DNA of 64,000 nucleotides, from the IMG/VR virus record IMGVR_UViG_3300019776_000521, positions 9,556-73,555 of that record; one strand, 5' to 3'. The DNA is from a virus. Made by a program: the position numbers and the translations under genes. Below, in pieces: positions 4,502 to 44,193 of the stretch (positions within the stretch are counted from its first letter, which is position 1; each line of letters begins with the position of its first letter). The notes below the pieces were generated by a model. The model ran no database searches. It was not told the DNA's origin and saw only the letters and a program-made list of their open reading frames with translations.

Positions 4502-4578
4502 GCGCCCGTAGCTCAGTTGGATAGAGCGTTCGGCTACGAACCGAAAGGCCGGGAGTTCGAGTCTCTCCGGGCGCGCCA
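4502..4578 (+). tRNA. tRNA-Arg (anticodon ACG)
   Basis: Full cloverleaf: acceptor GCGCCCG/CGGGCGC, D arm GCTC/GAGC, anticodon arm TTCGG-CTACGAA-CCGAA, T loop TTCGAGT, encoded CCA; 77 nt. Confidence 0.97.
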
Positions 4579-27895: not shown

Positions 27896-30800
27896 TTACT
27901 TCACAATTGCCATCGCAGTGTGCACCGTAGCCAAGTTGTCCAGTGCACCAAAGTACTGGAAAGCTCCAGAGTGCAATGGATTGTTTCCAATGTGCTGCGT
28001 AAACGAACTATCCAGAACGATGGGTCCGAGTTCCATGTAATGATTCAGTGCAATGGCTGACAGTACACGGGCCGGGTTCTCCCTGGCCAGCTTCAGCAGC
28101 ACCCGTTGAATGCGTAGGAAGTACTTGGTAAATGGCGTCAGGCCCATGTCGTCCGTGTACTGCAAACCACGGTGCATCGGGATGTCGTAGTTCACAAAGG
28201 CATCCGACGCTTCCTGAATTGCAGCTTCACGGCTCAACGGGTTCGTGCCCCTGCTCACCAGGTGCTGGTACAGCGTGTACCGAGCCACGAAGTCCGACAG
28301 CTGTGTAATGCGGCTCAGAGTCTGGTACATGTTGGTGTCATGCGTCATGTACACCGCCCTGCCTGCAGCACGAATCTTGGGGTTCAGCCTGCTGGTGAAC
28401 TTCTCCGTCTTTCTCACAAACTCACTCTTGTACGAGTAGATGTTTTCCTCAGCAGCAAGATCTTCCACGATCGTAGGCATCAGCCCTGCTTCAATCAGTT
28501 CCTTGACCGGATTCCTAGCAATCGCGTCTTTCAAGCGAACGATTTCATCCTTAATTTCCTTTTCCTTACCCAGTCCGTAATCGACCTCCAGCATCGTCTG
28601 CAGATCCGCCAAACGCTGGCTATCTCTCTGGTATGCCGTAGCACCTTTCAACGCCACCAGGTGATGCTGCAATACGTCCTTCAACGACACGCCTGACATG
28701 GCAAGCAGCGACAAGTTCGACCAGATGTTCCCAAGCATCACAAAGCCAGTCTTGACCACAATGATGTCTTTGGTCTCGGCTACCAATTCCTGCCATGCAC
28801 GTTCGCCCCTGGTGATCACTACGGCTGCTCTCTTGGCGTAATCCTCTGCGTCAGCTGCAGACAAGCCATGCCGCATGCCTGCGTAGTTTGCAAGCACTGT
28901 CTGCACCACATACACAAACAAGCCTTCCAGCTTGTTTCGTGCATCAGGATCCTTCTGGAACATCGACGCCAAAGTCAGCTTGCGATACCCAAACATGATG
29001 TCCAGTGAATCGCTGCGCACCTTCATGCCGTCCCTACCCCACACTGCCCTGATGTCTTTCTTCGTAGCATCAGGCAGTAAATCCCAGATCGCACGCATCT
29101 CAGGATCAGTGCTCCGATCGCCAACTTCAACGTAAGAATCCTTGCGGGTTGCGTACTCCAGTTCGTACTGTTCACGCAATACAGTGACTGCTTTTTTGTT
29201 CTGTTCCCGACTGGTCTCCTTGTCGTAGATCGAACCAGCAATCACACCGATCAGATTCTCAAACCTGTTGTCCCGCTCAAGCAGGTTGTCCTTGGTGGAC
29301 TCAGCCATCATGTAGCGCCAGTTCACGATCGCACCTGTCTCGTTGTAGACAGGAATCATGTGGTTTTCTCTTTCAGCTGACAGATCCCTACGCGGATCAC
29401 CCATACCTTGCATAGCAGCCAGCTTTTCGTTGGTGATGGTCGCTTGCATGCTTGCATTCTCAAGCCCGTTCAGCGTGTTCACGTTTACGTAGCCGCTGTG
29501 CTTTTTGCTGCCCCTAGACTTCATGCTGGACAAGGAAAACGCACCCGAAAGCCAAGGAGACAAGCCACCGTCCCTGAGCACGTAGATTCGCTTAGTTTCG
29601 GTATCCGGGTCAGCACGATCGTTAGACACCAGTGCGCCTGCCGAGTAGCCCTGGTTCACAAGCTCCTTGCCTTCTGCCTCGGTAGCAATCTTGATCGCTG
29701 TATGCGGGTTTAGGATCTCCGGCGTGTAGCCATGGATCATCAGCGCAGGATTGCCTTTGAACAACCGTTGTAGCGACTCCTCTTCCAGCTGCTTGTGCAG
29801 CTTCAACAGGAACTCAACACCGTTGCCATTGTTATCAGTTCGACTGTTTTCAGTCCTGAAAACTTCTTTGGCTTGGCTCAAGTGGTCACCTGCTGTGTAC
29901 TTCAAGGCGTACAAAGAGATCAATGCTGCAATCACAGGCTCTGCCTGTTTTGCTTCAGCCTCAGAGATCTGCCGCTGGTACTGAGTGTTGGCCATCCTGG
30001 AGATCAAGTGTGCATTGAGCATCAGCACAGGAATTCTGGCTCGTCCAGTTGCTTTGAAGTAACCCAAACCATTGATCTGTTCGATGTACTTGTCTTTGTA
30101 TTTAGAGGTCAGCTGAGACTCAAAGTTTTCAATGGCTTTGTCTACTGCCTTGTAATCCCCAACCAGCTTCTCCAAATCAGCAACGCTGTAGTGATTCAGC
30201 AAGTTGTGCAAACCAGTTCTTAGAAACACAGCAGACACTGCAGCTTTGGCTTCCTTGCTCATTGCTTTGCCATTCTGAAACACGCTCAGCACAAGCTTCG
30301 AGTGCTGCGTGATGATGTTCTTGCGCTCACCTTCATGGCGCTTGGTTTCACGCAGCAGAGCATTGAACTTGTCCAACGGTCCCTTCAGTTCATTGAGCAA
30401 ACTTGCTGCAATGCCTTGCCTGCCTTTGAACTGCTGATCACGAAGAATTTTCAATCCGTCAATCACTTGCTCCACCCGATCATTGGCAATGGTTCGAGCT
30501 ATGCCCCCTGCTGCTTGAACAAACGCATTGCCGTTGTTACGAACAAATGACGAACCAGCAAGGTCACCTGCTTTTTCCCGGATGCCATCTGCCAGCGCTT
30601 TGACGCCTCTTTCAACTGGTTCAAGAATGCTGCGCTCTGTTGCACGCTTCTTGATGAGCACTCGCTTTTTGGCTTCGATGTCCACCAGCTGGCCAACCAA
30701 CGCTTCCAGCTTGGCGTCAGCGTTCTGACCAGCGTAGGTGTGCGTGAACTTCTCATTGAAGAAATTCAAAATGCGCTCAAAGATGCTTTCGAGCTTCTCG

Positions 30801-33800
30801 GTGAACGTCATGTCCTGGGCTGCTTTGCGTGAAGCAACCTTGGTTGCTCTTTTCAACAGCGTATTGAACTTTTCGCTGGCCAGGCCCAGGGCTGCAAATC
30901 GAGCCAGGTAATCCGAGCGATCGCCGTTGTTGCTCTCCAGCTTGAACACAAAGTCGTAGTCTTCCTGGGACGCAAAATCCGATGGCTTGAGCGTATTGCG
31001 CATTTCAAGGTACAGATCAGCCAGCTGCTTGTAGGCAATCTTGGTTTGGGACTCGTTGCCGTTCAACGCTGCCCGCACGGTGGCTTCCACCTGCTGCATG
31101 GCAAAGTCTTCCTGTGCACTACCTGCAAACCCAGACGCCACAATCGATGATGCAAAGGGAGCGTTGCCTGTTTCCATGGCTTTGAGCCATACCGCCAAGG
31201 GATTGCCTGCCTCGGTCTTGCGCATCTGCTCTGCAAACGCACCAAACGGGCCGTGGAGCTTCTCTACGATGCCACCCAGTAGGTTGGCCAGGTGCTCCTG
31301 GAACGAAGGCTCTACGGAGCCATTGGCCAAGGCGTTGTGGATGTCCAGGGTCGTGTACTTGTCGATCTGCTCGACGGTCTCCTGAGCAAGGTTCAGGTCG
31401 GCGTTGCTTGTCTTCTTTGCTTGAGCCGCTTCCGCAAACAATCCCGACACATTTGCAACCAGCACAGCCATGCCGTTGTTGAGATTCTCGTCAGGCTTTT
31501 TGAACAGCAGTTGCGTCAGCGTAGCGATGAACTTCTTCATGCCGGTGATCAGCGAGGTGCTGCCGGTCTTGGACTCCATGGTGATCTTGCTCAGCACATC
31601 ACGCTGCAGGCCCAGGTTGGTCATGCCCCAAGCCACGAACTCTTGAACGTTGGCCAAAGCTGCCGTGTAGTCGTTCAGTCCGTTTTGCTTTGCATACTCT
31701 TGAGCCTTGACCCGCAGAGCTTCAAGCTCAGCCACCAGTGCTGCTGCTTCGCCGGTTGGCTTGTCGATCACCCGTGCAATCGCTGCGTGCACCAGTTCAT
31801 GCAGCAATGTTTCGGCTGTCAAACCAGAGTTCTGAAACTCTGGACTGAGTACGTAGATTTCCTCCTGGCCATTCTTGACGACGTACCACCCACGGGAATT
31901 GGTTGTGGGCTTTTCCAGAACCATGCTTTCCGCTGTCTCGGATGTCACAAACTTGATCTTCAAGTCAGGGCTAACCACCCGACTGACCAAAGCCAGGATC
32001 TTGCGATTGATTGCATTCATCCGTCCAGGTGCACCAAGCAGTGCAATCACTTGGGACGCCGAGGCATTCGGATTGGCTTTGAAAAACCTGACCAGATCGC
32101 CATCACTTTCAATCTTTGGCGTACCGATTGGTCCAAACAGACTATCGGCAGTAGCAACAGGCTTCTCGGTTGCAGGAGCAGGCTTTTCGGAAACACTCAT
32201 GCCCAGGGCTTCAGAGATGATCACAAGAGCTTCTTGTTCCTTGGCAGAAAGCCCCTCTTTCAACGCAGACTGCATTGCTGCAGCATCACTACGATCGGCT
32301 TCGGTGACTTCGTAATTGCCACCTTCGAGTGCGTACTGATCAACCGAACCCATCTGGCTCAATGCTTCAAGACGCACACTGTCTGCGCTGAAAGCCGTGC
32401 TTGTTGCGTTTTGCAGCATGTCGCTCAGCACCGTGTCAGGGCTCATCTCGTTCTCACCTGCAAACTTGTTCAACGCTTGCGTGAGATTCTCGACAACCTG
32501 AACAGGAAGATCCTTCTGAGCCAACAGCTCAGACAAGCCAACAACCGTGCGAGACAACATGTTCGCCATCTCCGTTGCCGGAGAGTAGTTCAGCAGTGCA
32601 CTCCAAGTAGCTTGATTCAGGTTCTGTGCTGTCTGACTAAATCCGCCCAAACCAGATCCATGAGCATCATGGATGTTTAGCACTTCATTGCCATCTGCAG
32701 CGTTGTGTGAGATTGCAGAGTCCAGCGAATGCGTGGACATCACGACCATTGCTACGCCAGGATTGCTTTCGATCGTTTCAAACGCAGTAGCTTCGACCGA
32801 TGATTGCTCAACGTAGCCGCCTTTCTTCTTGCTCCAAACCTTGGTTCCTTTGATTGCAGAACCAAACTTGACATTGCTTTTGAACGTGCTGCGAGTGCTG
32901 AGCTTGCGGCTTGATTTCGATGCAAACAGGCCAGCACGCAAGGAACCACTTTCCTTGGACATGAGCGTGTGCATCACAGGAGCAAGCTTGCTCACTCGTT
33001 TCTTGAGTTCTTCCTGCTGCTTGAGTGTCAGATCGTGAATCGGACGGTTCTTGCTATCTACTGCAATTTCACCAGACGCCACCAACTCAGCCAGGTACGC
33101 ATCACGCAAGCCCATGTACGCTGCGTTGTACAGCTCGAATGAGAACTGAGCACTCTTGTTCAGTGCATCGCGTTTGCTGATGAAATTGCCAAAGTCAGCG
33201 GACATTGTTTCCGACACTGCTTTGCCCAGCGTGTTCTTGAAGCTGTTCTTTAATGCCTTGATCTGATCTGAATCAAACTCGTAAGCAAGCAGCTTTTCCA
33301 CAGACATCAATGAAAGCTTGGCGCCATCACCACCCCTCAGCAATACATTGATGTTGTTGATAGTGGCTCGAATATCTGCTTTGCCTGCAGCCACATCTTC
33401 CATGCTGGAGTAGATGGATTCAATAAAGCCATCGGCCATGCTGTCTACAGCCGAACCAACAGAGGAGCCAAAGATCATCGCCGTCAAAGGCGTCTTGATG
33501 ATGTTTCGACGCTTCTTGAGAATCTCAGGTGTCTCAAGAGTCAGATTCCCGGTAAACGCATACACAGCGTTCAAAGTTGCACCAATCTTGCTGTCTTTCA
33601 GCAGCATCTTCTGCACGGCATTCGTCATGTGCAATGCAGTGATCTCGTATAAATCTTTGGCACCAGGCTTACCACGCCAAACGTTGTAGTTGGTGTTGGG
33701 ATTGCTTTTCTCGAAGAACCCACCACGATTGAGCAAGCCAAACAAATCCTTCACAGACTTTGCTGCACCAAGCAGGATATGGCTCAGCATGGGGCCATTG

Positions 33801-36800
33801 GTTACCCCGTCTACCTCGCCCATCATCTGAACGGAAAAGCTGTTCTTGCCATCAAGCTGCGCTTGTGCTTCCGTAGCCAAAGCCATCAGTGCATCCAGCG
33901 AATGAAAATTCATTCCGCCTTTCTTGACTCCAGCAAGCAGGACTTTTCCTTCTTCTGAAGTGATGCCACCTTCAAACACTGTCTTGCGCAACACTGCTAC
34001 AGCGGCTTTGATCTCCGGCTGATTGACGTAGGATTCATAAGCAGCCAACGAAGTCTTGTTGGCTTGCTTGTCTGTCTTGACTCCCAGACCTTCAAGAACC
34101 CTGAGCCGAAAGTTGTCCATCTGATCGGCATTGCCCATATCGACCATCGTGGTCCATGCGTTGCGAAATAGCATGAAGCGATGGATCTTGCTGGTCTGCG
34201 GATTGATGACGTTGGTGGCAATACCAACTCGTTGCTGCTTCCACACCGAATGCTCAAAATACATTGGAGCTTCGATGTCAGCCATGCTTTTGACAAACTC
34301 CATGAACCTATCCAGTTCACGAAGCAGCCCATCGTTCTTTGCCTGCAAACCTGGCTTGTTGACTGCATGAGTTTTGGTGTCGGAAATCTCAACGACACCT
34401 GCAATGCCTTGAAGCACATCGTCACCAAGCTGCGTGATCAGCTGCCACATGTCTTGCCGCACATAGTTGGCTTCTGCATTCTTGGCAGCAACAATCTTTG
34501 CAAGCTTCTCCGGTACGTTCTGGTTGGTGTTGCGTGTCTTTTTCTGCACAAACGGAACTGGCTCAAGGCTGGGTTCCTTCAAACCAGACTCTACTGAAAA
34601 CAGCTTGTCGAGCACTCCTTGCGAACCAATGGATGCCTTGACGATCCGCTCTGCATCAGCAGGCAAAGTGCTCTGCGCATTCCTGGCAAGTTTGACGAAA
34701 TGAAATTCTGCGTTCGTGTTCGTGCTTTCCTTGTTCGTCAACGCAGCCATGGTCTCACCTGAGACTGTTGACCTTTCAAGCAGTCCTAGATCCATCATCA
34801 ACTTCCATGCATGTGCACCCAGGGAAGCTTCCAGGTCAGGCATCAGATTGACTGGGGCATCCTTCGACACTTTGAAACCAAGCGCCTGTACAACTGCTTG
34901 GCCAAGCGAGTTGCGCACCAGGTTTTCCCTTACGCCTACGTTGCCGAGCACCATGCGTTCAGCTTGCGAGACGCTGACAGTTTCATCCCGATCGAGAATC
35001 GCGTTGATGTCTTCGTCAGTGTTGTACAGATTCTTGGATGCAGCTTCTGCAACCCAGCTGAACACTGCATAGCTGATTGCAGTCTTCACATTCTGATCAA
35101 CATCTAGCTTTCCATCGTTCTCTTGGATCAGGTACTGCATCATGTCTTCGTACCGGAACTCTTTGGTACGAGCACTCAGATTCTTTTGAATCAACCCTTG
35201 CCATTGCTGGTTCAGTTCTTGAAACAGCTGCAGCACTTCTTGCTGCTTGCCGCTGAGAGACTTGATGCCAAGGAAATCCAGAACATTCTGAGCACCCTGG
35301 CTCAGGAAGTTTTTCACCTTCACTAAAGGCCGCTCAGTCAGATCGCCTTCACGACTGGCTTGCTGAGTGAAGAAGTCTGCAATGAGGTTACGAAGAGGAA
35401 ACGATGTCCCCTCCGTGGACTTTTCCTGAAGCGTCGTAACAGCACCAGGCTGCGTAGACAGTGCACTTGCGACCTCTTCAGAAACTGGAACAACCTCTGA
35501 AGGGGTCGTGCTAGTCTGCTCAGTAGACTGCAGTTGACCTTGATTTGTCTCAGGAGACGCAACAGTTGTCCTAGTAGAGCCGGAGGCTCCTACAGACGCA
35601 GCAGGCTCACCCGAAACACTTTCTACGGTTTGTCCAGCGGCGGATTCAGTTGCTGCGGTTGCTGGTACTGAGGGGTTGACGGCTCCTCCTTCAACTCCTC
35701 CGGTCGGCTGACTCGTACCTGCTTCAGTCGAGGGCGCAGTTTCTGTGCGATTCGGACTGGCTTGTAATCCTTCGAGTGTTTGCGATACGTTCGAGACATT
35801 ACTGACTCCATTGGAAATAGGTTGGGCAAACTTCAGCCCGTAGGCTGCTCGAAGCTCTGTTGCCGCCTTGGTCAGTGCATCCGATTCAATCTGAATGTTA
35901 TCAACAATTTTGGTGCTGTTCCTGACAATATCCAGGCCACCATTTTGCTGACGTTCTTTTTGACTGGGCCATTTCCCAGTTTCAATCGACCAGCTTCCAT
36001 TGCCATCACTAACAATGCGCCGCTCCTGCCCGTCTTTCTCAAACAGGGCTTTTGCTTCAGCAGCCACTTGTGCTTTCTGCTGATGGTCGCTGACAAAGTT
36101 GTCCAGCAGCTGCAACTGCGCAGTAGCGGCTTTTGAGTTGTTTGCTGCCAGTGCAGTCGTGACATTGGCTCGGTATTGCTGAATACCGATGTTCCCTTTG
36201 CCGCCATAGAAAACCTCCTTCGAGACCTTATCCATGGTCTTGAGTTGGTTCTCTGCTTGCCGTGCTTGCGTGAATGCCCGCAGGTAGCCCCGCTGCGGGT
36301 CCGTCAGGCCGTTTGTCGTGTCATTGGCAAGCGACGCAGCCAGGTTGGTATCCAGGCGCTCTGGCGTGGCCATAGACAGGTTGATGATGCTGTCCGCTGC
36401 AGCCTGTGAAGCTACCGGATCAGCAGCAGTGATCTTTGCAGCCTCAGCTTCTACATCCAGCTCCTTGGATTGGTTTTCCTGATTGAAGTTATTCAGCACC
36501 TCCTGAGCTGATGCAATCTGCTCATCAAGCCGAGAGATCTGCTTTTGCAACCTTGGACCAGCGTCTGTCTCCTTGGCCAGGGTTGCAAGTTCAGCTTCCA
36601 GAGCATCGACGGTAGGCTGATCTCCAGCTTCTCTGGCTTGAACCAGTTGAGCCATGTAGCCAGCCACAGCTTCAGGCGAGATAGAAGCGTAGTTTTCTTC
36701 TGCTTTTTGTTTCTGCTCAAGCAGATCAGACACGATGCCCGATGCCTGCTCAAACTTTGCTTGTTTCAGTTCGGGCGTAGCGGTCGGCAATTGGCTGTGG

Positions 36801-38092
36801 CCATACAAAGCCGATACAGCCTGATCTGGGGCGTAGGACGGGCTTTTGGGATCCAGGAAGGTAGTGACATCACCTGAGACAATCGCAGCTTGTAGGGCTT
36901 CTGCTTTCGTTGCGTCGGCTACTTTCTTTTCAAATTTAAGCAGAGACATTTCGGATGCAGACTTCAAAGTCTGAATACCACCACCCATGATTCCGCCCAT
37001 GAAGGCACCCTGACCAGCAGCAGCACCAACGCCATCAAAAAGCTCTTGTGCTGGCTTAATCTCCTTGACTGCAGAATTTCCAAAATAGCGTCCGCTACCC
37101 TCTTCTATTCCTTCCTGCCCAGCTTCTCCAACAAATGCTTTGGGTACAGCAACAAAACCACCTGCTTTCTTGCCAATCAGAGCTTTCTCAATTGCAGTAC
37201 CACCAGGAAGTGCAGAAGAAAACAACGAAACTGCTCCTGCTTTAAGCGTAGCTTCTCCGGCCAACTGCGATGCAATAGCTTGCTTGGCTTGTTGAGGACC
37301 AAGGCTTTCAGCCAAAGCTACATACTCAGGGTTTTGATCCCAAACAGCATCAGGCAACGACATCATTCGCTGCATCGTGTCTGAACCAACATCGACACCT
37401 TGCAACACAGCGCCCGTACCAACAGCAGCAGCTGTGCCACTCTTTTCCACAGCAATCTGTCCGGCTTTGGTTGCTGCAACTTTAGGCAGTGTTTTGGCTG
37501 TAGCAGCAGCAGCTAGTTCAGCACCACGACCTACTTTGCTCATCACTCCCAGTTGCGCTGCTTGTTGAGCCAAAAACTCAGGAATGCTTCCTGGGTCTTT
37601 TGCAGCTTCCCAGAATGCAGCACCAAACTCTGCAGCAACTTGCCCAGCTACACCTGTTACGCCATCACCTAAAGCTTCCCGTGCTGCTTTGCCCGCTTTG
37701 CCAGCAACCACTGCTTTTTCTTGATTTTTGGCTTGAGCAAAAGCTGATTTCAGTTTTTCTCGTTCATCAGACATTTTGCTGATGTCTTGTGTTTCAGGCC
37801 CGTACCAATCACCAGTGGTAGCTTTGTCGTAAACCATCGCTGGCAACTTGGCCAGTCCATCGATACCTTGAACAGCTGACAAAGCCAAGTCTTTTGTGTA
37901 GTCCCCCCACGACCTACCTTCATCAATGGCTTGATCTCTGGCTACTTGCGCAGTGTTTTGCGCCAACGCTTGCCGGTAAGTTTCCAAGCCAGCAAGCTTC
38001 TCTTGACGAGCTTGAAGAATTTGATCAATCTTTTCAGGATTCGGCGCACCATACTTTTGAAGCAAATACTGATCAACATTGAAGGTGGCCAT
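27896..38092 (-). CDS. Virion-encapsidated RNA polymerase (N4 gp50-like), 3398 aa
   Basis: Size; EVDGVTNG (motif A), RNIIKTPLTAMIFG (B), IHDA (C); HELVH zincin-like motif; no Cys seen downstream of MATFNV, while the listed 5' extension has several. Confidence 0.95.
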   Translation of the reverse strand: MATFNVDQYLLQKYGAPNPEKIDQILQARQEKLAGLETYRQALAQNTAQVARDQAIDEGRSWGDYTKDLALSAVQGIDGLAKLPAMVYDKATTGDWYGPETQDISKMSDEREKLKSAFAQAKNQEKAVVAGKAGKAAREALGDGVTGVAGQVAAEFGAAFWEAAKDPGSIPEFLAQQAAQLGVMSKVGRGAELAAAATAKTLPKVAATKAGQIAVEKSGTAAAVGTGAVLQGVDVGSDTMQRMMSLPDAVWDQNPEYVALAESLGPQQAKQAIASQLAGEATLKAGAVSLFSSALPGGTAIEKALIGKKAGGFVAVPKAFVGEAGQEGIEEGSGRYFGNSAVKEIKPAQELFDGVGAAAGQGAFMGGIMGGGIQTLKSASEMSLLKFEKKVADATKAEALQAAIVSGDVTTFLDPKSPSYAPDQAVSALYGHSQLPTATPELKQAKFEQASGIVSDLLEQKQKAEENYASISPEAVAGYMAQLVQAREAGDQPTVDALEAELATLAKETDAGPRLQKQISRLDEQIASAQEVLNNFNQENQSKELDVEAEAAKITAADPVASQAAADSIINLSMATPERLDTNLAASLANDTTNGLTDPQRGYLRAFTQARQAENQLKTMDKVSKEVFYGGKGNIGIQQYRANVTTALAANNSKAATAQLQLLDNFVSDHQQKAQVAAEAKALFEKDGQERRIVSDGNGSWSIETGKWPSQKERQQNGGLDIVRNSTKIVDNIQIESDALTKAATELRAAYGLKFAQPISNGVSNVSNVSQTLEGLQASPNRTETAPSTEAGTSQPTGGVEGGAVNPSVPATAATESAAGQTVESVSGEPAASVGASGSTRTTVASPETNQGQLQSTEQTSTTPSEVVPVSEEVASALSTQPGAVTTLQEKSTEGTSFPLRNLIADFFTQQASREGDLTERPLVKVKNFLSQGAQNVLDFLGIKSLSGKQQEVLQLFQELNQQWQGLIQKNLSARTKEFRYEDMMQYLIQENDGKLDVDQNVKTAISYAVFSWVAEAASKNLYNTDEDINAILDRDETVSVSQAERMVLGNVGVRENLVRNSLGQAVVQALGFKVSKDAPVNLMPDLEASLGAHAWKLMMDLGLLERSTVSGETMAALTNKESTNTNAEFHFVKLARNAQSTLPADAERIVKASIGSQGVLDKLFSVESGLKEPSLEPVPFVQKKTRNTNQNVPEKLAKIVAAKNAEANYVRQDMWQLITQLGDDVLQGIAGVVEISDTKTHAVNKPGLQAKNDGLLRELDRFMEFVKSMADIEAPMYFEHSVWKQQRVGIATNVINPQTSKIHRFMLFRNAWTTMVDMGNADQMDNFRLRVLEGLGVKTDKQANKTSLAAYESYVNQPEIKAAVAVLRKTVFEGGITSEEGKVLLAGVKKGGMNFHSLDALMALATEAQAQLDGKNSFSVQMMGEVDGVTNGPMLSHILLGAAKSVKDLFGLLNRGGFFEKSNPNTNYNVWRGKPGAKDLYEITALHMTNAVQKMLLKDSKIGATLNAVYAFTGNLTLETPEILKKRRNIIKTPLTAMIFGSSVGSAVDSMADGFIESIYSSMEDVAAGKADIRATINNINVLLRGGDGAKLSLMSVEKLLAYEFDSDQIKALKNSFKNTLGKAVSETMSADFGNFISKRDALNKSAQFSFELYNAAYMGLRDAYLAELVASGEIAVDSKNRPIHDLTLKQQEELKKRVSKLAPVMHTLMSKESGSLRAGLFASKSSRKLSTRSTFKSNVKFGSAIKGTKVWSKKKGGYVEQSSVEATAFETIESNPGVAMVVMSTHSLDSAISHNAADGNEVLNIHDAHGSGLGGFSQTAQNLNQATWSALLNYSPATEMANMLSRTVVGLSELLAQKDLPVQVVENLTQALNKFAGENEMSPDTVLSDMLQNATSTAFSADSVRLEALSQMGSVDQYALEGGNYEVTEADRSDAAAMQSALKEGLSAKEQEALVIISEALGMSVSEKPAPATEKPVATADSLFGPIGTPKIESDGDLVRFFKANPNASASQVIALLGAPGRMNAINRKILALVSRVVSPDLKIKFVTSETAESMVLEKPTTNSRGWYVVKNGQEEIYVLSPEFQNSGLTAETLLHELVHAAIARVIDKPTGEAAALVAELEALRVKAQEYAKQNGLNDYTAALANVQEFVAWGMTNLGLQRDVLSKITMESKTGSTSLITGMKKFIATLTQLLFKKPDENLNNGMAVLVANVSGLFAEAAQAKKTSNADLNLAQETVEQIDKYTTLDIHNALANGSVEPSFQEHLANLLGGIVEKLHGPFGAFAEQMRKTEAGNPLAVWLKAMETGNAPFASSIVASGFAGSAQEDFAMQQVEATVRAALNGNESQTKIAYKQLADLYLEMRNTLKPSDFASQEDYDFVFKLESNNGDRSDYLARFAALGLASEKFNTLLKRATKVASRKAAQDMTFTEKLESIFERILNFFNEKFTHTYAGQNADAKLEALVGQLVDIEAKKRVLIKKRATERSILEPVERGVKALADGIREKAGDLAGSSFVRNNGNAFVQAAGGIARTIANDRVEQVIDGLKILRDQQFKGRQGIAASLLNELKGPLDKFNALLRETKRHEGERKNIITQHSKLVLSVFQNGKAMSKEAKAAVSAVFLRTGLHNLLNHYSVADLEKLVGDYKAVDKAIENFESQLTSKYKDKYIEQINGLGYFKATGRARIPVLMLNAHLISRMANTQYQRQISEAEAKQAEPVIAALISLYALKYTAGDHLSQAKEVFRTENSRTDNNGNGVEFLLKLHKQLEEESLQRLFKGNPALMIHGYTPEILNPHTAIKIATEAEGKELVNQGYSAGALVSNDRADPDTETKRIYVLRDGGLSPWLSGAFSLSSMKSRGSKKHSGYVNVNTLNGLENASMQATITNEKLAAMQGMGDPRRDLSAERENHMIPVYNETGAIVNWRYMMAESTKDNLLERDNRFENLIGVIAGSIYDKETSREQNKKAVTVLREQYELEYATRKDSYVEVGDRSTDPEMRAIWDLLPDATKKDIRAVWGRDGMKVRSDSLDIMFGYRKLTLASMFQKDPDARNKLEGLFVYVVQTVLANYAGMRHGLSAADAEDYAKRAAVVITRGERAWQELVAETKDIIVVKTGFVMLGNIWSNLSLLAMSGVSLKDVLQHHLVALKGATAYQRDSQRLADLQTMLEVDYGLGKEKEIKDEIVRLKDAIARNPVKELIEAGLMPTIVEDLAAEENIYSYKSEFVRKTEKFTSRLNPKIRAAGRAVYMTHDTNMYQTLSRITQLSDFVARYTLYQHLVSRGTNPLSREAAIQEASDAFVNYDIPMHRGLQYTDDMGLTPFTKYFLRIQRVLLKLARENPARVLSAIALNHYMELGPIVLDSSFTQHIGNNPLHSGAFQYFGALDNLATVHTAMAIVK

Positions 38093-38129
38093 ATAGTCTT
38101 TCGGTCTGAAGGAAGTGGTAGCTATTCTA

Positions 38130-38157
38130 AAGAAAAAGCCGGGAGTTACCCGGCTTT
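38130..38157 (-). terminator. Terminator-like hairpin upstream of vRNAP
   Basis: Minus strand AAAGCCGGG-TAACT-CCCGGCTTT followed by TTCTTT. Confidence 0.7.
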
Positions 38158-38159
38158 GA

Positions 38160-40124
38160 TTATTGCCTTGCTCTAAACACTGGTGGATAAACAGGATTGG
38201 GGTCTTTCCACAAGCCACGCTTTTCTTTACGTGCAGTGTTTTCTGCAATGTTGAGATCAACGTTCCTGAGAGTTTGCTGCGCAAACGCTTTGTACACCCA
38301 AGCTGCACCTTGCTCTACCATGGCATGGTCAAGACCTTTGCCTTCAATCTCAACCTGACAAATAGATCTACCGGCGTACTTGCCATCAGGACGAACAATT
38401 CTGATGTTCACTTCTTTGTTGAGAATCAGCTCTTCCAGACGTTTCTTCGATTCCTCTCCAAACGGCTGACCATTTTTGTTGTACTGCTTCTTTGCAGTCT
38501 CCGGTGCGTCGATCGTATCTATCCTGCAGTTGATTCCGTTTTCAGAAGAAAACGTGTCTCCATCAGCAACGTAGCTAACTACTGCTTTTACCCCGGTGCC
38601 TTTTGGAATAGCACCAGGAGCAGCTTTTACTGCGCTGACTGGTTGCTTCCATTTGACATCTTTGGGTAGCTCTATCGGATCAGTTTTAGCTACCGGAGAA
38701 CCATTGACAGGATTGAGAGCAAAGCCAGTCGAATCAGCTACGGCTGGCTTTGATTTTGACGAAGTAGAAAAACCGCTGTTGAAGCTAACAGCAGCTGGAG
38801 CCTCAGTTACCTCTTTTTTTTTTTCCGGTGCGCTTGTTTCAGCTTTTGCACTGGAGATAGCTCCGTACCTCTGAAATTCTTCGATCAGCGGATCAACGGC
38901 CAGAGTCTGAGGAACATCAATCAGACCACCTCGTCCAACAATCCTCTGTGTTGGTCCACTAACCTTTGGTTTAGGCAGCAGACTTTCAATCTTCTTATCA
39001 AAGCTGTCAGCGTAACCTTTGCTACCAAACCAGTTGGTATCAACTGAAGAAAGCAAAGCCGATTTCACAACACTAAGCGGAACAGGTACGTTGACTGTAA
39101 TCGGCTTTCCATCTTCACCAATGGTAGTCCGAGTGATACCATTTTTGGCAAGATTGGAAATTCTTTCCATCAGGTATGCACGACCGTTGCTGTCGTCTTT
39201 GCCACCAATTCCGTTAGTCTTTGCAATGGTAGCAAGCTCTACAAGACTGTCTGGAGTCAGCAGCCCACCTTTGTACACGTTGTCTTGTAACGCAAGATCT
39301 AGCTTCTTGACGTTTTGAGCAGCAGCACGTTCACGCTCTGCTCGGTCAGCAGTCAATCTTGAAGCGTTTGTTGAAGCTTCTGAAGCACTGATGCGGGCTT
39401 GTATTTCTTTTCGAACCAAGTCGGCATTGTTAACTGTGTTTTGAAGACTTTGGTTATCAAGACCAGCTTTGGTAACAGCAAGAGGTCGCAGCAAAGCACG
39501 TTGTGATTCTTCTGTGCCTCGACGAGTTTCTTCTGCTACTCGGCGCTTCTCTTCTTCAGTATCAAAACCAAACCTTGTTGAAGCACGATCTCGTTCTGTC
39601 AGAGTCTGCTGCCGCGTATCGATCGTCTTTGCCAGGTTCACGGCTTCCCGCAGATCAGGTCGAGCAGCCAGCATCTCGCCTGCACGCTTTGGATCCTGCA
39701 AAGCCATGAGGTTGATCGCACGAACGTCTGCTTCCTGAGCAGCATCCAGCATCGTGTTCTTGTACGTGATGCCTTGAACGTCACGCTGCTGGAGCGTATT
39801 AACGCGCCCATCACGAAGAGCATTCACTGCAGCCCGATCAATCACAGCGCCATTTGCAGCAACAGCTTGATCCAGTGCACCAGACCTGTTCAAAACGTTG
39901 AACTGGTCCACGTTTTCAGCTTGATAAATCTTGCTCAACGCATCTTGCGTAGCAGCTTGATCTTGTCGTTTCCACAAAGCCTGATCGAAAGTATCGCTTT
40001 CTTTGAGAGTGCTTTTCAGGCTGTCAAACGCTCCAGCAAAAGCCTGTTGCGCATAAGCAAGCGGACGACTGGCATCTGCCAGGGAAGGTCCGGTAACGGT
40101 ACGCCAAGTGATGGGGGTAGCCAT
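38160..40124 (-). CDS. N4 gp51-position putative ejection protein with C-terminal thermonuclease (SNase) domain
   Basis: Synteny and MATPITWR start; DGDT, RIDTIDAPE, QPFG, GKYAGR, MVEQGAAWVY, ARKEKRGLW. Confidence 0.88.
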   Translation of the reverse strand: MATPITWRTVTGPSLADASRPLAYAQQAFAGAFDSLKSTLKESDTFDQALWKRQDQAATQDALSKIYQAENVDQFNVLNRSGALDQAVAANGAVIDRAAVNALRDGRVNTLQQRDVQGITYKNTMLDAAQEADVRAINLMALQDPKRAGEMLAARPDLREAVNLAKTIDTRQQTLTERDRASTRFGFDTEEEKRRVAEETRRGTEESQRALLRPLAVTKAGLDNQSLQNTVNNADLVRKEIQARISASEASTNASRLTADRAERERAAAQNVKKLDLALQDNVYKGGLLTPDSLVELATIAKTNGIGGKDDSNGRAYLMERISNLAKNGITRTTIGEDGKPITVNVPVPLSVVKSALLSSVDTNWFGSKGYADSFDKKIESLLPKPKVSGPTQRIVGRGGLIDVPQTLAVDPLIEEFQRYGAISSAKAETSAPEKKKEVTEAPAAVSFNSGFSTSSKSKPAVADSTGFALNPVNGSPVAKTDPIELPKDVKWKQPVSAVKAAPGAIPKGTGVKAVVSYVADGDTFSSENGINCRIDTIDAPETAKKQYNKNGQPFGEESKKRLEELILNKEVNIRIVRPDGKYAGRSICQVEIEGKGLDHAMVEQGAAWVYKAFAQQTLRNVDLNIAENTARKEKRGLWKDPNPVYPPVFRARQ

Positions 40125-40750
40125 TATTTCACTCCGTTGCGCTGCATGTAAGAGCCAACAGACTCATACGCACCAGGATTGGATGCCACACGCGCTTTTT
40201 GCCGATCTTCCAGAGAAGAATTTGTGGTGGTCTTTTGAGCTTCAAAGTTGCGTTCAAACTGCGACTTGCTGTTTTCAAAAACGTCTTTAGCCAGGTTGTA
40301 CTGCTGCATGCCCATGTACAAGCTTCCAAGACCTTGAGCTGCACCAAGTGCCAAACCACCCCAGCCCTGCTGATCGCGTGAGCCAAGAAACCCGCTGTCT
40401 CGAAGGTAGCCGGTAATGCCTCCTCCACCGCTCCCAGCTGAAGAAAAGTCTCCCCATGCGCCAGGAATGCTGTTTGCACCAAAGATGCTGGTTCCATCCA
40501 ATGCTTGCTTGGATAGCGGGCTGACCATGTTGACCGGATCGTTGGGCATCATGGCTGGCTGATTGGTGTAGCCACCCCAGTCTCCCCACGCACCAGGAAC
40601 AGAATTGGCACCAAACGAATTGGTGCCATCCATGGTGTTTTTCTTGAACGTCTGCTGAGGAGTGAGCAATCGTGGATCGACTCGGGGAGGCAAGTAGTCC
40701 ATTCCATAACTTCCAGAACCCATAGGCTGGTAATCGTATTTGCTAGGCAT
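40124..40750 (-). CDS. N4 gp52-like virion/ejection protein
   Basis: Gly-rich hydrophobic segment then NFEAQK..TN..LEDRQ.AR; synteny. Confidence 0.75.
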   Translation of the reverse strand: MPSKYDYQPMGSGSYGMDYLPPRVDPRLLTPQQTFKKNTMDGTNSFGANSVPGAWGDWGGYTNQPAMMPNDPVNMVSPLSKQALDGTSIFGANSIPGAWGDFSSAGSGGGGITGYLRDSGFLGSRDQQGWGGLALGAAQGLGSLYMGMQQYNLAKDVFENSKSQFERNFEAQKTTTNSSLEDRQKARVASNPGAYESVGSYMQRNGVK

Positions 40751-42959
40751 AAGAGGAATCTCCTAACGTGTCTTTCAATTTGGGAAGGGTGAGTGCGACA
40801 TCCACGTAGTAGGAGATTGCAGTGATACCCAATGTTCCGATGTTACCGGAATGTACTGTTCGATTATAAAAGGCTTGCGGCTCTTCCCCAAATATGACAA
40901 TGGGAGCCAACAGATTATTGCTTTCAAGCAAGTCTTTGGCTTCATCAAGAAGCTTGGTTTGCTCTTGGGCATAGTTGAAAAAGTCAGCTTGTTCAGTCAT
41001 CAAGCCTTCCATTTTGGCTTGCATGATTGCTTGCTGAAGACCTGTAGAAAGCTGAAGCATTGCTTCGGCCCAGGGCGCTCCTTGTACACCGCCTGCTGTA
41101 ATGAGTTCATAACCGCCGTAAAGCAAGGCTATGAGCGCAACAACAGTGGCAAGCTCTGTACCAAACGCTTTGACAAACAACTTGAAGCCGACTGCCAACA
41201 GCTGGCCGACAACCAAGTTCACGACAATCGTGGCTATAAGACCTGCTGATCCAGTCAAGCCAAGTGCTGTTGCAATAAATGATCCACCGTCAGCACCATA
41301 GGTATAAACCGTAATGATGATGGCAACGATAACCAGCAATAATTGAAACAAACCAGTCTGATACCACTTTACTTCTGTAACTACCCTGCTGTTGAAAACA
41401 AAATGCAATGACCTTGCATACAGAGTTTCTCTGTCTGGAATTGGGTAAGTACTAGAAATACTCTTGTCGATCGGAATCAGCAAAATGTTGTCTGTTTCAT
41501 CTGCGGTAGTCGTGTACTCCCCGTATACGTAGTACGTCATCTTCAGGTTTGAAACTTGGATCTCTTCAAACAATCCAACAGCAATTTGCTTGCGATACGT
41601 GTGTGTGCCTGAAGGGATGCTTGTATAGGTTATGGCTCCAGTCTCAGAGTTCACAAACTCTGTCTGAACGTTAACTGATGAAAACAAACTGGTGTGCGTA
41701 CCAATAACACCAATGGAACCTGCAACAATTTTCTTGTAGATGCCTTCGTTAGACAAAGCCATCTTGAATTGTGAATCTTTGATGATCGACGCATTTCGTG
41801 ATACAGACCCATCACCAAATTTCGATTGAAGAGCGCTCAATGCTGGATAAGCCGTACCACCCATTGCGTAATGCATGGCGTCAAAATAGTCAAAAAGATA
41901 CCTGCACTCAATTTGGTTTGTAGATACTGCTGGTACACCCAGCATAAGCATGGCTTGCTCTACATCTGCAATATCCGGGTTATCGTCAATGGCTTCTGCC
42001 ATCAAATCAAAATCAATTCCCAAATACTTGACCATCTTTTTTGTGGTCAAGTACGCCTGAGTTGTTTTGTTTGAGATGACGGATTGCTTGTTGTACCGGA
42101 AGTACGCAAACGGAAAATAAGAGCCATTGACTGCAGGGCCATCGACAAACACATTGTCAAGGCTTGGGTAAGTACCAAGCTTGTTCTTGTACATCCAGTA
42201 TTTGGTCTGCCCTGAGAACGAATACTTTGCGTGAAAGTAATCTGCTGTGAAATCATATTCCTGCACAGACAGGACAAACGATTCTTCGCTCAATGGAGCG
42301 TTGGCTGAAGCCTTCCACACGTAAGTCACCTTGAGGTGCAAATCAGTGGCTGTAGGGCTTTTGTAGATCGGAGATGGTGGAGCAAGGGATACCACACCCC
42401 CAAGGCTTGCAAGACGCTCTGGCGTGTATCCAGAGGCTGCAGCGGTACCCCATTGATCCAGTGCACCAAGCTCAAATGAATCCGCCTGGTTTGCAGGGAC
42501 AACCACCACCATGTCTTTCAAATAGACAGGAGCGCCTTTCTGAGCAGAAAGTACGCTCATCTGATTTGTGGCTTGGCTGTAGCCATACTGGGAAACCAGC
42601 TTTGTCCAGCCAATATGCAGTGCATTTGGCGGACCATAGTGCGAGTACTCCATGAACACTTGTTGGCCTTCAAGCGTTTCAATGACTGCTTCGACCTGTA
42701 GGCGTCCCTGGGTAGAAGAGTACACATCTCCCGATGGCAAGCCGTAGACGTAGTGATCTTCGGCGTATCGGTACATGCGTTCAGCCCTTACGCCAACGCT
42801 TGCAGCCAACTCTTCCATTACAAAATCGGTCAGATCACCTTCATTGAAAAATGACTTGATGACCCCAGTCTTGATCGACTGAGGCATTGCGTCGTCTTTG
42901 ATAACTCGGGAGACAACCGTACCGACTGTAGTTCTGTAGCTGCTGCTGAACAGTCCCAT
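40743..42959 (-). CDS. N4 gp53-like virion protein
   Basis: MGLFSS start, VKWYQTG followed by hydrophobic helices; synteny. Confidence 0.8.
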   Translation of the reverse strand: MGLFSSSYRTTVGTVVSRVIKDDAMPQSIKTGVIKSFFNEGDLTDFVMEELAASVGVRAERMYRYAEDHYVYGLPSGDVYSSTQGRLQVEAVIETLEGQQVFMEYSHYGPPNALHIGWTKLVSQYGYSQATNQMSVLSAQKGAPVYLKDMVVVVPANQADSFELGALDQWGTAAASGYTPERLASLGGVVSLAPPSPIYKSPTATDLHLKVTYVWKASANAPLSEESFVLSVQEYDFTADYFHAKYSFSGQTKYWMYKNKLGTYPSLDNVFVDGPAVNGSYFPFAYFRYNKQSVISNKTTQAYLTTKKMVKYLGIDFDLMAEAIDDNPDIADVEQAMLMLGVPAVSTNQIECRYLFDYFDAMHYAMGGTAYPALSALQSKFGDGSVSRNASIIKDSQFKMALSNEGIYKKIVAGSIGVIGTHTSLFSSVNVQTEFVNSETGAITYTSIPSGTHTYRKQIAVGLFEEIQVSNLKMTYYVYGEYTTTADETDNILLIPIDKSISSTYPIPDRETLYARSLHFVFNSRVVTEVKWYQTGLFQLLLVIVAIIITVYTYGADGGSFIATALGLTGSAGLIATIVVNLVVGQLLAVGFKLFVKAFGTELATVVALIALLYGGYELITAGGVQGAPWAEAMLQLSTGLQQAIMQAKMEGLMTEQADFFNYAQEQTKLLDEAKDLLESNNLLAPIVIFGEEPQAFYNRTVHSGNIGTLGITAISYYVDVALTLPKLKDTLGDSSYA

Positions 42960-42977
42960 CTGATTTCCGATTCAGAA

Positions 42978-43009
42978 TAAAAAAATGGGGAGCGCAATGC
43001 TCCCCATTT
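42978..43009 (-). terminator. Rho-independent terminator
   Basis: AAATGGGGAGC/GCTCCCCATTT stem with a T run on the minus strand. Confidence 0.8.
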
Positions 43010-43023
43010 CAGAGATCAAATGC

Positions 43024-44193
43024 TTACGCATTCACACCCGTCAACAGCTTGTCCACTGCCCGACCTACGAACGTATCTGCCAGCTTGTTGGTCGAATCGG
43101 CCACAGTACCTTCGTCAGTAGTGCGACGAACGTTCCAGGTATCGACCATAAGCTTGGCGGCTTTCTGTTCGGCATCTCTGGTAAAACCAGAAGTCTGAGC
43201 CTGGTAAAGCAGCTTCTGACGACCCACAACGCTGTTGTCGTCCACACCCAGTGCAGTGACTTGAGCGCGTTCCGTAGCGACTTTCTGGCTGAGCAGAGAA
43301 GTCTCTTGAGCCGCCTTGAGCACATTGCCCATGGTGAGATCAAACTCTGCAGTGAGCTTGCATTGCTGAGCAGTAAGCACTGTGCCTTCGATGATGGCAT
43401 TGGCTTTCTGCTGTGTGATGAGTAGCGTTTGGGCTTCAATTTGAAGACTTTGAGTAACCAGGTTTGTCGTTTGCTGGATTGCCTGAGCCTTGTTGGCATC
43501 GATGAGCAAGCCTTGCTTTGGAATGTTGCTGGCTTCAGCAAGCAAGTTGGCAGTCTGCTGCGTCACTTGATTCTTCTGAGCAACCAGCACATCGCCTTGC
43601 TTGGGAACGTTCAACGTCTCTGCAGTAATCTGCGCAGCCTGTGCGTCAACACGCAGCTTGTCTGCAGCAAGATTGAGTTTCTGCTGAAGCTGCACTTCTT
43701 TTTGAGCATCAAGCAAGGTGCCTTGCTTGGGAATGTTGAGAAGCTCAGCAGCAACATTTGCAGTTTGAGCTTCAAGCTGAGTCTTTTGAGCAGTAACAAC
43801 CAGGGTTTCCTGAGCCAGCTTAATTCGCTGAGCAGTGGCTGTCAGTAGCTCGTCAACCAGGTTGGCTTTTTGTTGATTGATCAACAGCGTTTGAGCTTCG
43901 ATTTGTAGCTTTTCAGAAGCAGCTTTGTCGATCTGAGACTGAGCCAGCAGAATCTGTTTTTGCAGCAGCTGAGCTTCCAGATCGGTTTTTTCCTTGGTGA
44001 GCAGGAATTGCAGAGCCGTCTGCATCACCTGCGTCAAGGAGCCTAGATAGACCGTTGAATACTCTGCACCCTTGATTCGGTTCTTGTTGAACTCCGCTTC
44101 AAGGTGAGCCTTGTTGGCTCGCATCAGAACGTCAAAAACACCCGTTCCATCAAGGGTGGCTTGAGTCAGGTCTGCTACTGCAATTGTGGTCAT
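43024..44193 (-). CDS. N4 gp54-like structural protein
   Basis: GTGVFDVLM...HL..EF...RI.G.EY; Gln-rich coiled-coil repeats. Confidence 0.8.

Follow-up and report, generated by a model that had tools for sequence, protein, structure and literature searches.

What would a nuclease be doing on a phage protein of a kind that is packaged in the virion and expelled into the cell at infection? The question is raised by one gene in a 64,000-nucleotide stretch of viral DNA, positions 9,556 to 73,555 of IMG/VR virus record IMGVR_UViG_3300019776_000521 (the window; coordinates below are counted from its first letter). The open reading frame (ORF) in question occupies positions 38160-40124 of the minus strand, is open throughout and encodes 654 residues: an ejection protein resembling gp51 of phage N4, a linker and a staphylococcal nuclease (SNase) domain. 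A previous sequence-only reading of this DNA proposed that the product is a virion-delivered nuclease. Our analysis partly supports that interpretation on sequence evidence, and goes beyond it in placing a probable recoding site at the join between the two parts, an A11 run in the window and -1 frameshift cassettes in relatives. The model that we favor, with a probability of roughly 0.6, is that of a gp51-type tunnel protein carrying an exported-type, Ca2+-dependent SNase at a conserved recoding junction.

A predicted tunnel protein that ends in a nuclease domain

The sequence-only reading had placed the gene between a gp52-like gene and the gene for the virion RNA polymerase (vRNAP). This was borne out by PHROG matches, as the ORF adjoins a phrog_2646 gene in the gp52 position on one side and a phrog_2206 vRNAP gene on the other. 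Residues 1-448 (38781-40124, minus strand), a periplasmic-tunnel ejection protein of the type of N4 gp51 and DEV gp72, are predicted to be almost all-helical and close on ...TSAPEKKK, a relic of the basic tail of the family. This part matched no Pfam or PHROG family. A profile of 61 N-terminal part sequences matched gp72, chain R of 8VXQ (also 9BGO), with an E-value of 3.8e-13 over profile positions 1-292, and the ejection-protein identity previously suggested for the N-terminal two-thirds gains a structurally characterized relative in DEV gp72. By gene position and profile, we assign residues 1 to about 448 to the N4 gp51/DEV gp72 family. Homologues of 396-533 residues begin with the motif MA.PITW.N; in all of them (60/60) the match is confined to residues 1 to about 440, and the C-terminus is a basic tail rich in K and R. 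The nearest relative of the N-terminal part, P0002, is 77% identical, has 448 residues and ends ...PEKKKKK without an SNase domain. An AlphaFold2 (AF2) model from a 92-row alignment has a mean predicted local distance difference test score (pLDDT) of 82, with long, high-scoring helices over residues 15-430 and disorder at residues 435-501.

The proteins of this family that have been studied build conduits. The gp72 of 8VXQ comes from Pseudomonas phage DEV, whose virions have twelve copies of it around the portal; after ejection it forms a nonameric tunnel. At its N-terminus gp72 is in contact with the outer-membrane protein gp73, and through its C-terminal region with the vRNAP, which it binds (PMC11445570). 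N4 gp51, of 644 residues, is likewise found around the portal in virions and forms a periplasmic tunnel once ejected (PMC13434306), and the C-terminal end of gp72/gp51 faces the inner membrane and the vRNAP (PMC11445570, PMC13434306). The window protein resembles N4 gp51 and DEV gp72 in its gene position between a gp52/gp73-type gene and vRNAP, its MA.PITW.N N-terminus and its predicted long helical build. It differs from N4 gp51, for which hydrophobic helices and no enzymatic domain are reported (PMC13434306), in having no hydrophobic segment, and in a basic tail that is followed by a linker and a nuclease.

The C-terminal domain spans residues 512-654 (38163-38591, minus strand), in agreement with the intact SNase domain that had been placed at about 38163-38590 from its catalytic set. 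Pfam SNase (PF00565) matched residues 534-641 with an E-value of 8.6e-20 and 71.6 bits against a cut-off of 21. A phmmer search of Protein Data Bank chains aligned residues 520-643 to staphylococcal nuclease (E 3e-7), pairing D521/D523 with D19/D21, R534 with R35, D539 with D40, A540 with T41, E542 with E43 and R586 with R87. In SNase, D21, D40 and T41 are Ca2+ ligands, and R35, E43 and R87 are catalytic. The T41 position is an alanine here (A540); the ligand at T41 is the main chain, and D521, D523, R534, D539, E542 and R586 are all intact. The catalytic D/D/R/E/R set was invariant in 37/37 module sequences (alignment A2) and was kept in 13/13 N4-type metagenome rows, where the D40 position showed only conservative D/E/N changes. 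The model check that had been called for gave the same answer as the profile: residues 512-654 have pLDDT above 90, and Foldseek matched the domain to SNase structures with target template modelling (TM) scores of 0.67-0.77 and E-values of about 1e-7 to 1e-6. By score, predicted fold and catalytic residues, the C-terminal part is a member of the SNase family. It is predicted to be a Ca2+-dependent nuclease, and judged by its residues it is catalytically intact.

The linker (residues 449-511; 38592-38780, minus strand) has low pLDDT and is rich in Pro, Ala, Ser and Lys as had been noted, with eight of each among its 63 residues. It includes a conserved stretch, ...LNP..G...P.E.PKDV.W..P.T.V.A, ahead of the SNase core. 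That the window might hold an independent SNase gene with a start of its own was considered and ruled out, as neither a stop nor a Met occurs across residues 320-601.

Distribution of the fused nuclease module

An exhaustive HMMER search with the whole protein returned 7,366 proteins at E <= 0.001, whose best 150 representatives we classed. By phmmer, 54 of these 150 had the gp51 part only, 31 had both parts and 65 had the SNase part only; the HMMER ranking that they were taken from is biased toward SNase holders because the query includes the SNase. Seven of the 65 SNase-only proteins (663-957 residues) open with the gp51 N-terminal motif and are further fusions with divergent N-termini. Many others, of 190-260 residues, begin 'MT.P', a start that results from gene callers using a GTG that overlaps the TGA stop of gp51 in the split arrangement described below (layout (a)). 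In a Pfam scan of 49 sequences, all 45 of at least 600 residues carry SNase at or near the C-terminus. It is reasonable to infer a nuclease that rides on an ejected protein, since the N-terminal part is related to DEV gp72 and the fusion is recurrent.

The module also keeps other company. The sequence-only reading had mentioned wall-lytic domains at the gp51 position. This applies to some relatives: a Glucosaminidase domain (PF01832) lies between the junction and the SNase in L008 (4001-6421), and an SLT domain (PF01464) lies in the gp51 part, ahead of the junction, in L009 (4001-6931) and likewise within the gp51 part of P0092. It does not extend to N4 itself, whose ejection proteins appear to lack a peptidoglycan hydrolase (PMC13434306), and the L008 and L009 fusions contrast with N4 in this respect. 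Outside gp51, the linker and SNase terminate P0194, a 2297-residue phrog_30152 'virion structural protein', and follow an endolysin-like domain in P0122 (400 residues). The linker and SNase thus look like a mobile cargo of virion and envelope-acting proteins beyond N4-like phages. Deposited phages yielded little: tblastn of the whole protein against 50,697 deposited phage records gave three SNase-only hits, none under an N4-like name, and no hit to the gp51 part at E 1e-5.

The junction in the window and in relatives

The join between the gp51 part and its extension in the window is an A11 homopolymer (38814-38824, minus strand; T11 on the plus strand), which we propose as a slippage site. The basic tail relic is coded CCG GAA AAA AAA AAA and is followed in frame by GAG GTA ACT, which creates the run. 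Stops close both non-zero frames immediately afterward (38803-38809, minus strand). With one A fewer the product would end ...KKKR at a TAA (38807-38809), and with one A more it would end ...KKKRGN at a TGA (38803-38805). Closure of both alternative frames within three codons, as seen after the A11, is equalled at only 24 of 634 in-frame positions of the ORF. The features by which poly-A slippage sites are recognized, a run of at least 9 A and near stops in the non-zero frames, are therefore both present, the stops lying two and three codons on. Eighteen nucleotides downstream of the run, within the coding sequence, there is a hairpin with a T-rich tail (38771-38796, minus strand), which may stimulate frameshifting, act as a pause site or have arisen by chance. 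The 70-nucleotide fold downstream of the A11 has a free energy of -17.7 kcal/mol and a z-score of -1.35. As the window gene is in frame, a -1 ribosomal frameshift cassette is not applicable to the window as such.

Close parallels exist in bacteria. In Thermus thermophilus dnaX, a long product is encoded in one ORF, and slippage at an A run with nearby stops in both non-zero frames gives the short product (PMC5009743). In Citrobacter rodentium tssM1, an A11 run before a stop leads to 20-25% transcriptional frameshifting, and both length variants are needed (PMC4256274). Like Thermus dnaX, the window has a long A run, encodes the long product in the zero frame and has stops nearby in the other two frames; its run has the same length as that of tssM1.

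To see the junction in relatives, we collected loci with their DNA. A scan of viral contigs with the single protein found no relative, and alignment-based scanning did find them. A scan of viral contigs with N-terminal motifs only, and hence unbiased for SNase, gave 51 loci, of which nine have the linker and SNase module beside gp51. Further loci were added by SNase-profile scans. Of 80 metagenome loci from the SNase profile, 13 (L065-L077) are of the phage linker and SNase type and six match the gp51 profile; the remainder are ordinary signal-peptide SNases, used only as an outgroup. Three layouts were seen.

In layout (a), the module lies in the -1 frame relative to gp51 (L003, L004, L006, L013, L021, L053, L065, L066, L068 and L072). 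Each of the ten loci has an in-frame X_XXY_YYZ heptamer or an A10 run two to four codons before the gp51 stop. The heptamers are A_AAA_AAA, A_AAA_AAG, C_CCA_AAG and C_CCA_AAA, and the A10 run is that of L053. A heptamer in the last ten codons was found in only 1 of 36 complete gp51 genes without SNase, a count that leaves out six truncated loci (L017, L019, L027, L039, L046 and L049). Of nine folded junctions (that of L006 is identical to that of L004 and was left out), eight have hairpins of -24.9 to -42.5 kcal/mol that start 3-7 nucleotides past the heptamer. The z-score was -2.26 or lower in six of the nine, -1.26 in L068 and -1.0 in L053. As judged from sequence and predicted folds, layout (a) combines all three elements of a classic -1 ribosomal frameshift cassette. 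These loci are similar to E. coli dnaX, whose -1 shift site is A_AAA_AAG (PMC5009743), in pairing A_AAA_AAG or A_AAA_AAA with a downstream hairpin.

In layout (b), the two parts are fused in frame over an A9 run (L008, L009/L010, L059, L070 and L077). Both other frames stop within one to four codons of the junction in the three loci that were checked (L008, L009 and L059), and double stops as near as these occur at 1.4-6.5% of positions in the same ORFs. Layout (b) shares with the window the likeness to Thermus dnaX. In layout (c), the fusion is in frame without a run (L055, L073/L074, L075 and the partial contigs L067 and L069). The window A11 is homologous to the A10 of L053, to the A9 of L008, L009, L059 and L070, and to the A7 or A6G heptamers of split loci. 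The -1 product of L053, ...KKKEVTTDLP, resembles the in-frame product of the window, ...KKKEVTEAP, the frames differing by one A. Taken together, the junction is probably a conserved recoding site that yields a short gp51 and a gp51-SNase protein.

A tree of 21 SNase modules was poorly resolved, with 5 of 18 inner branches well supported. The fused rows with an A9 or A11 run are not monophyletic, and the split L053, with its A10, groups with the A9-fused L008 at a support of 83/86. Because of the poor resolution, we make no claim about the number of switches between layouts.

Some loci stand apart from this series. In L024 (5296-5669; on the same truncated contig as L060), the module lies in the +1 frame, 68 nucleotides past the gp51 stop. 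No recognizable shift site was found at this junction. An apparent +1 split in L077 was rejected, as the frame break lies in the gp51 body (L077, 2490-2620) and not at the junction; L077 is probably an L059-like, A9-fused gene in which the break is an assembly error or the mark of a defective copy. In the SNase-less loci L041 (5381-5722) and L050 (5318-5674), a small ORF is found between gp51 and vRNAP; it has hydrophobic helices, and its tail is SHOCT-like by eye only, no family search having been made on it.

The in-frame status of the window fusion depends on the length of the A11 homopolymer, and the first rival explanation starts here. The true run might be A10 (or A12), through a miscall or as a population variant, so that the zero frame encodes plain gp51 and SNase is reached only through minor -1 frameshifting or slippage, as in L053. 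The 654-residue in-frame fusion would then be an assembly artefact, yet a transframe gp51-SNase would still be made. The record is a metagenome-assembled virus contig, stops stand immediately past the run, the A10 of L053 has the short form in the zero frame, and P0002 ends in its lysines without an SNase. Against this, at least four further, independent contigs (L008, L009/L010, L059/L077 and L070) have in-frame A9 fusions, and the 31 + 7 representative clusters of fused proteins among the best 150 show that the in-frame state is common and viable. We consider a wrong run length unlikely.

Predicted site of action

If the nuclease is expelled with the tunnel, its cysteines and its ancestry give indications of where it might work. 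C533 and C589 are the sole cysteines of the 654-residue protein; the first adjoins R534 and the second lies three residues past R586. Their positions are invariant in 37/37 module sequences. Among the fused proteins of 626-1005 residues, 37/39 have two cysteines and no more, both of them at the positions conserved in the SNase domain, and the other two proteins have none. Of the 80 metagenome loci, 24 have both cysteines, six have the second only and none has the first only. A C533-C589 disulfide that forms only outside the cytoplasm is likely from this conservation. Standalone metagenome relatives bear N-terminal signal peptides, in whose place the phage module has the linker and gp51, and from these sequences we take the SNase clade to descend from signal-peptide-bearing exported nucleases. 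The signal-peptide ancestry, the conserved cysteine pair and the occasional pairing with peptidoglycan hydrolases suggest periplasmic action. The sequence evidence suggests a nuclease that is folded, oxidized and Ca2+-loaded outside the cytoplasm, with the periplasm, at the inner-membrane end of the tunnel, as its likely site.

The mechanism we propose has the following course. Two products would be made from the gene: zero-frame decoding would give gp51-SNase, and slippage of the RNA polymerase and/or the ribosome on the A11 would give plain gp51, ending in ...KKKR or ...KKKRGN. The fusion would be packaged round the portal together with gp51, expelled unfolded through the tail, and refolded in the periplasm at the inner-membrane end of the tunnel. 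There Ca2+ and oxidizing conditions, acting through the conserved cysteine pair, would switch the nuclease on. During its synthesis the enzyme would be kept inactive by the reducing, low-Ca2+ state of the cytoplasm, and the phage genome would be shielded by traveling inside the tunnel lumen. These two properties together would answer the question of how the phage protects its own DNA. The most likely task of the enzyme would be the degradation of nucleic acid that lies exposed where the phage enters or in the periplasm, for instance DNA of competing or superinfecting elements.

A second rival explanation accepts that the nuclease is ejected but has it act in the cytoplasm of the new host, on host DNA or RNA or on defence nucleic acid, as a first-strike takeover effector. 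The C-terminal end of gp51/gp72 lies at the inner membrane and contacts the vRNAP that enters the cytoplasm (PMC11445570, PMC13434306), and the linker is long and flexible. The descent of the clade from exported nucleases and the conservation of a cysteine pair in otherwise cysteine-free proteins speak against it, as do the co-occurrence of the module with peptidoglycan hydrolases, which act in the periplasm, and the lack of a membrane-like hydrophobic segment that could carry the domain across (0/39 fused proteins). SNase chemistry, moreover, requires far more Ca2+ than the free cytoplasmic level. Cytoplasmic action therefore appears improbable to us.

A third possibility is that the nuclease is made late and acts after lysis, on released DNA or on extracellular DNA of biofilms, so that progeny can spread, and that the link to gene 51 only sets expression. 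Extracellular DNA is a common substrate of exported-type SNases, the dose under frameshift coupling would be low and fixed, and a separate product could arise in split loci by re-initiation at the overlapping start. Dosage alone hardly explains the repeated in-frame fusion to structural or ejected proteins (38 gp51 fusions and P0194), and the module in the window has no signal peptide or start of its own, with no Met between residues 320 and 601. We judge a post-lysis role quite improbable. A last alternative is that the domain has no catalytic role and is an OB-fold for binding the vRNAP or the leading end of the phage DNA; SNase-like folds do serve as binding modules in Tudor-SN, which is among the top Foldseek matches. 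This is very improbable, as the residues for Ca2+ binding and catalysis show little or no variation in the 37/37 module sequences and the 13/13 N4-type rows.

Weighing the model

Several observations count against the tunnel protein with a periplasmic nuclease at a recoding junction. The top 50 Foldseek matches of the whole model were all SNase-type folds (SNase and Tudor-SN/SND1), so that they showed no likeness of the N-terminal part to 8VXQ. No deposited phage record has both parts, and the module is therefore dispensable for the N4 life style. The downstream hairpin of the window is weak, so that slippage is unproven by the window itself, and an 11-base homopolymer in a metagenome-assembled contig may be miscalled. 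At 9 of the 10 split loci the TGA stop shares bases with a GTG (GTGA), and coupled re-initiation there, giving a separate SNase protein, is possible. The disulfide is read from conservation rather than from coordinates. Competing DNA is the most likely target that we infer, and is the least secure step of the scheme. Should GTGA re-initiation or the A10 miscall prove true, a gp51-SNase chain is still expected, at a lower dose.

A bolder extension of the favored model is conceivable but doubtful. Throughout a large, uncultured branch of N4-like phages, the junction could serve as a dose dial, in which changes to the A-rich sequence, between heptamer with hairpin, A9-A11 run and hard fusion, set how many of the approximately 12 packaged tunnel subunits bear a nuclease; the enzyme would stay inert in the reducing, Ca2+-poor cytoplasm until ejection into the periplasm activated it through a disulfide and Ca2+, and the incoming virion would then destroy competing DNA. 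If so, the phage would exert superinfection exclusion, or an anti-plasmid or anti-transformation action, at entry and before any phage gene expression.

Relation to known systems

Ejection proteins of short-tailed phages are known as builders of conduits, with one classic enzymatic passenger, the transglycosylase of T7 gp16. This N-terminal lytic transglycosylase travels as part of an ejection protein and works in the periplasm as the phage enters (PMC8954989). T7 gp16 is the closest functional analogue of the window protein, both being ejection proteins that carry an enzyme, and some gp51 relatives here carry Glucosaminidase or SLT domains. Unlike in T7 gp16, the putative passenger is a nuclease, it sits at the C-terminus of the tunnel protein (the analogue of gp15, not of gp16), and it is joined via a recoding site. 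If the reading is correct, a nuclease on a tunnel protein would be a pre-made effector of a new class, brought in along with the genome.

As an enzyme, the domain is similar to staphylococcal nuclease A and its signal-peptide-bearing homologues in fold and in the full set of D21, D40, R35, E43 and R87 equivalents. It differs from staphylococcal nuclease in the lack of a signal peptide, in its tether to a virion protein and in its cysteine pair, which occupies the positions of F34 and A90. As a putative recoded gene, it is set apart from dnaX and tssM1 by its predicted products, which are forms of a virion ejection protein that differ in the presence of an enzyme domain, and by three layouts that the family shows at one homologous site. 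A further comparison is with the C-terminal Ig-like extensions of capsid and tail proteins (such as the T3 capsid), which are added in frame or by a -1/+1 shift on a fraction of the copies (PMC5009743). The arrangement proposed here is similar in placing an optional C-terminal domain on a fraction of the copies of a virion protein, and is different in that the module is an enzyme on an internal, ejected protein and not a surface, adhesion-type domain.

The three layouts at one homologous site, in many lineages, offer a natural series in which to study the interconversion of frameshift cassette, slippage run and hard fusion, and the setting of the dose of cargo per virion. They also bear on annotation, as gene callers split the gene into a 'gp51' and an orphan 'MT...' SNase ORF in many metagenomic phages, which needs correcting. 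The words 'nuclease' and 'frameshift' do not occur in the main text of PMC11445570, PMC13434306, PMC8954989 or PMC10654107, and we found no published mention of a nuclease on an N4-like tunnel protein, or of its attachment through a recoding site, in a literature search whose scope was likewise the papers without their supplements.

Genome setting

The source record has 73,555 bases, is metagenome-assembled and is rated complete by CheckV; the window holds 64 kb of it. By PHROG matches, the late block on the minus strand is complete and N4-like (Schitoviridae), in the order portal, gp58-, gp57-, major head, gp55-, gp54- and gp53-like genes, phrog_2646, the target ORF and vRNAP. Judged by the portal protein, the closest phages on deposit are Salmonella FSL SP-076/058, Shigella B2 and Klebsiella Pylas. 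As these portals are only about 59% identical, the virus belongs to a distant, uncultured lineage. A megablast search of window positions 36000-44000 against deposited phages gave no match.

The gene upstream of the target ORF (40124-40750, minus strand) matches phrog_2646 and occupies the gp52 position, that of the outer-membrane ejection protein. Downstream, the vRNAP gene (27896-38092, minus strand; phrog_2206) encodes 3,398 residues from a likely ATG at 38092. The longest vRNAP ORF, from a GTG at 38308 (27896-38308, minus strand), would overlap the SNase coding part by 149 nucleotides, and its PHROG match begins at residue 77. Between the target ORF stop and the vRNAP start lies a terminator-like hairpin of nine pairs, six of them G-C, followed by a T run (38135-38157, minus strand), which might reduce vRNAP expression relative to gp51. 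Elsewhere in the window, a lone tRNA-Arg (ACG) gene of this phage genome lies at 4502-4578 on the plus strand.

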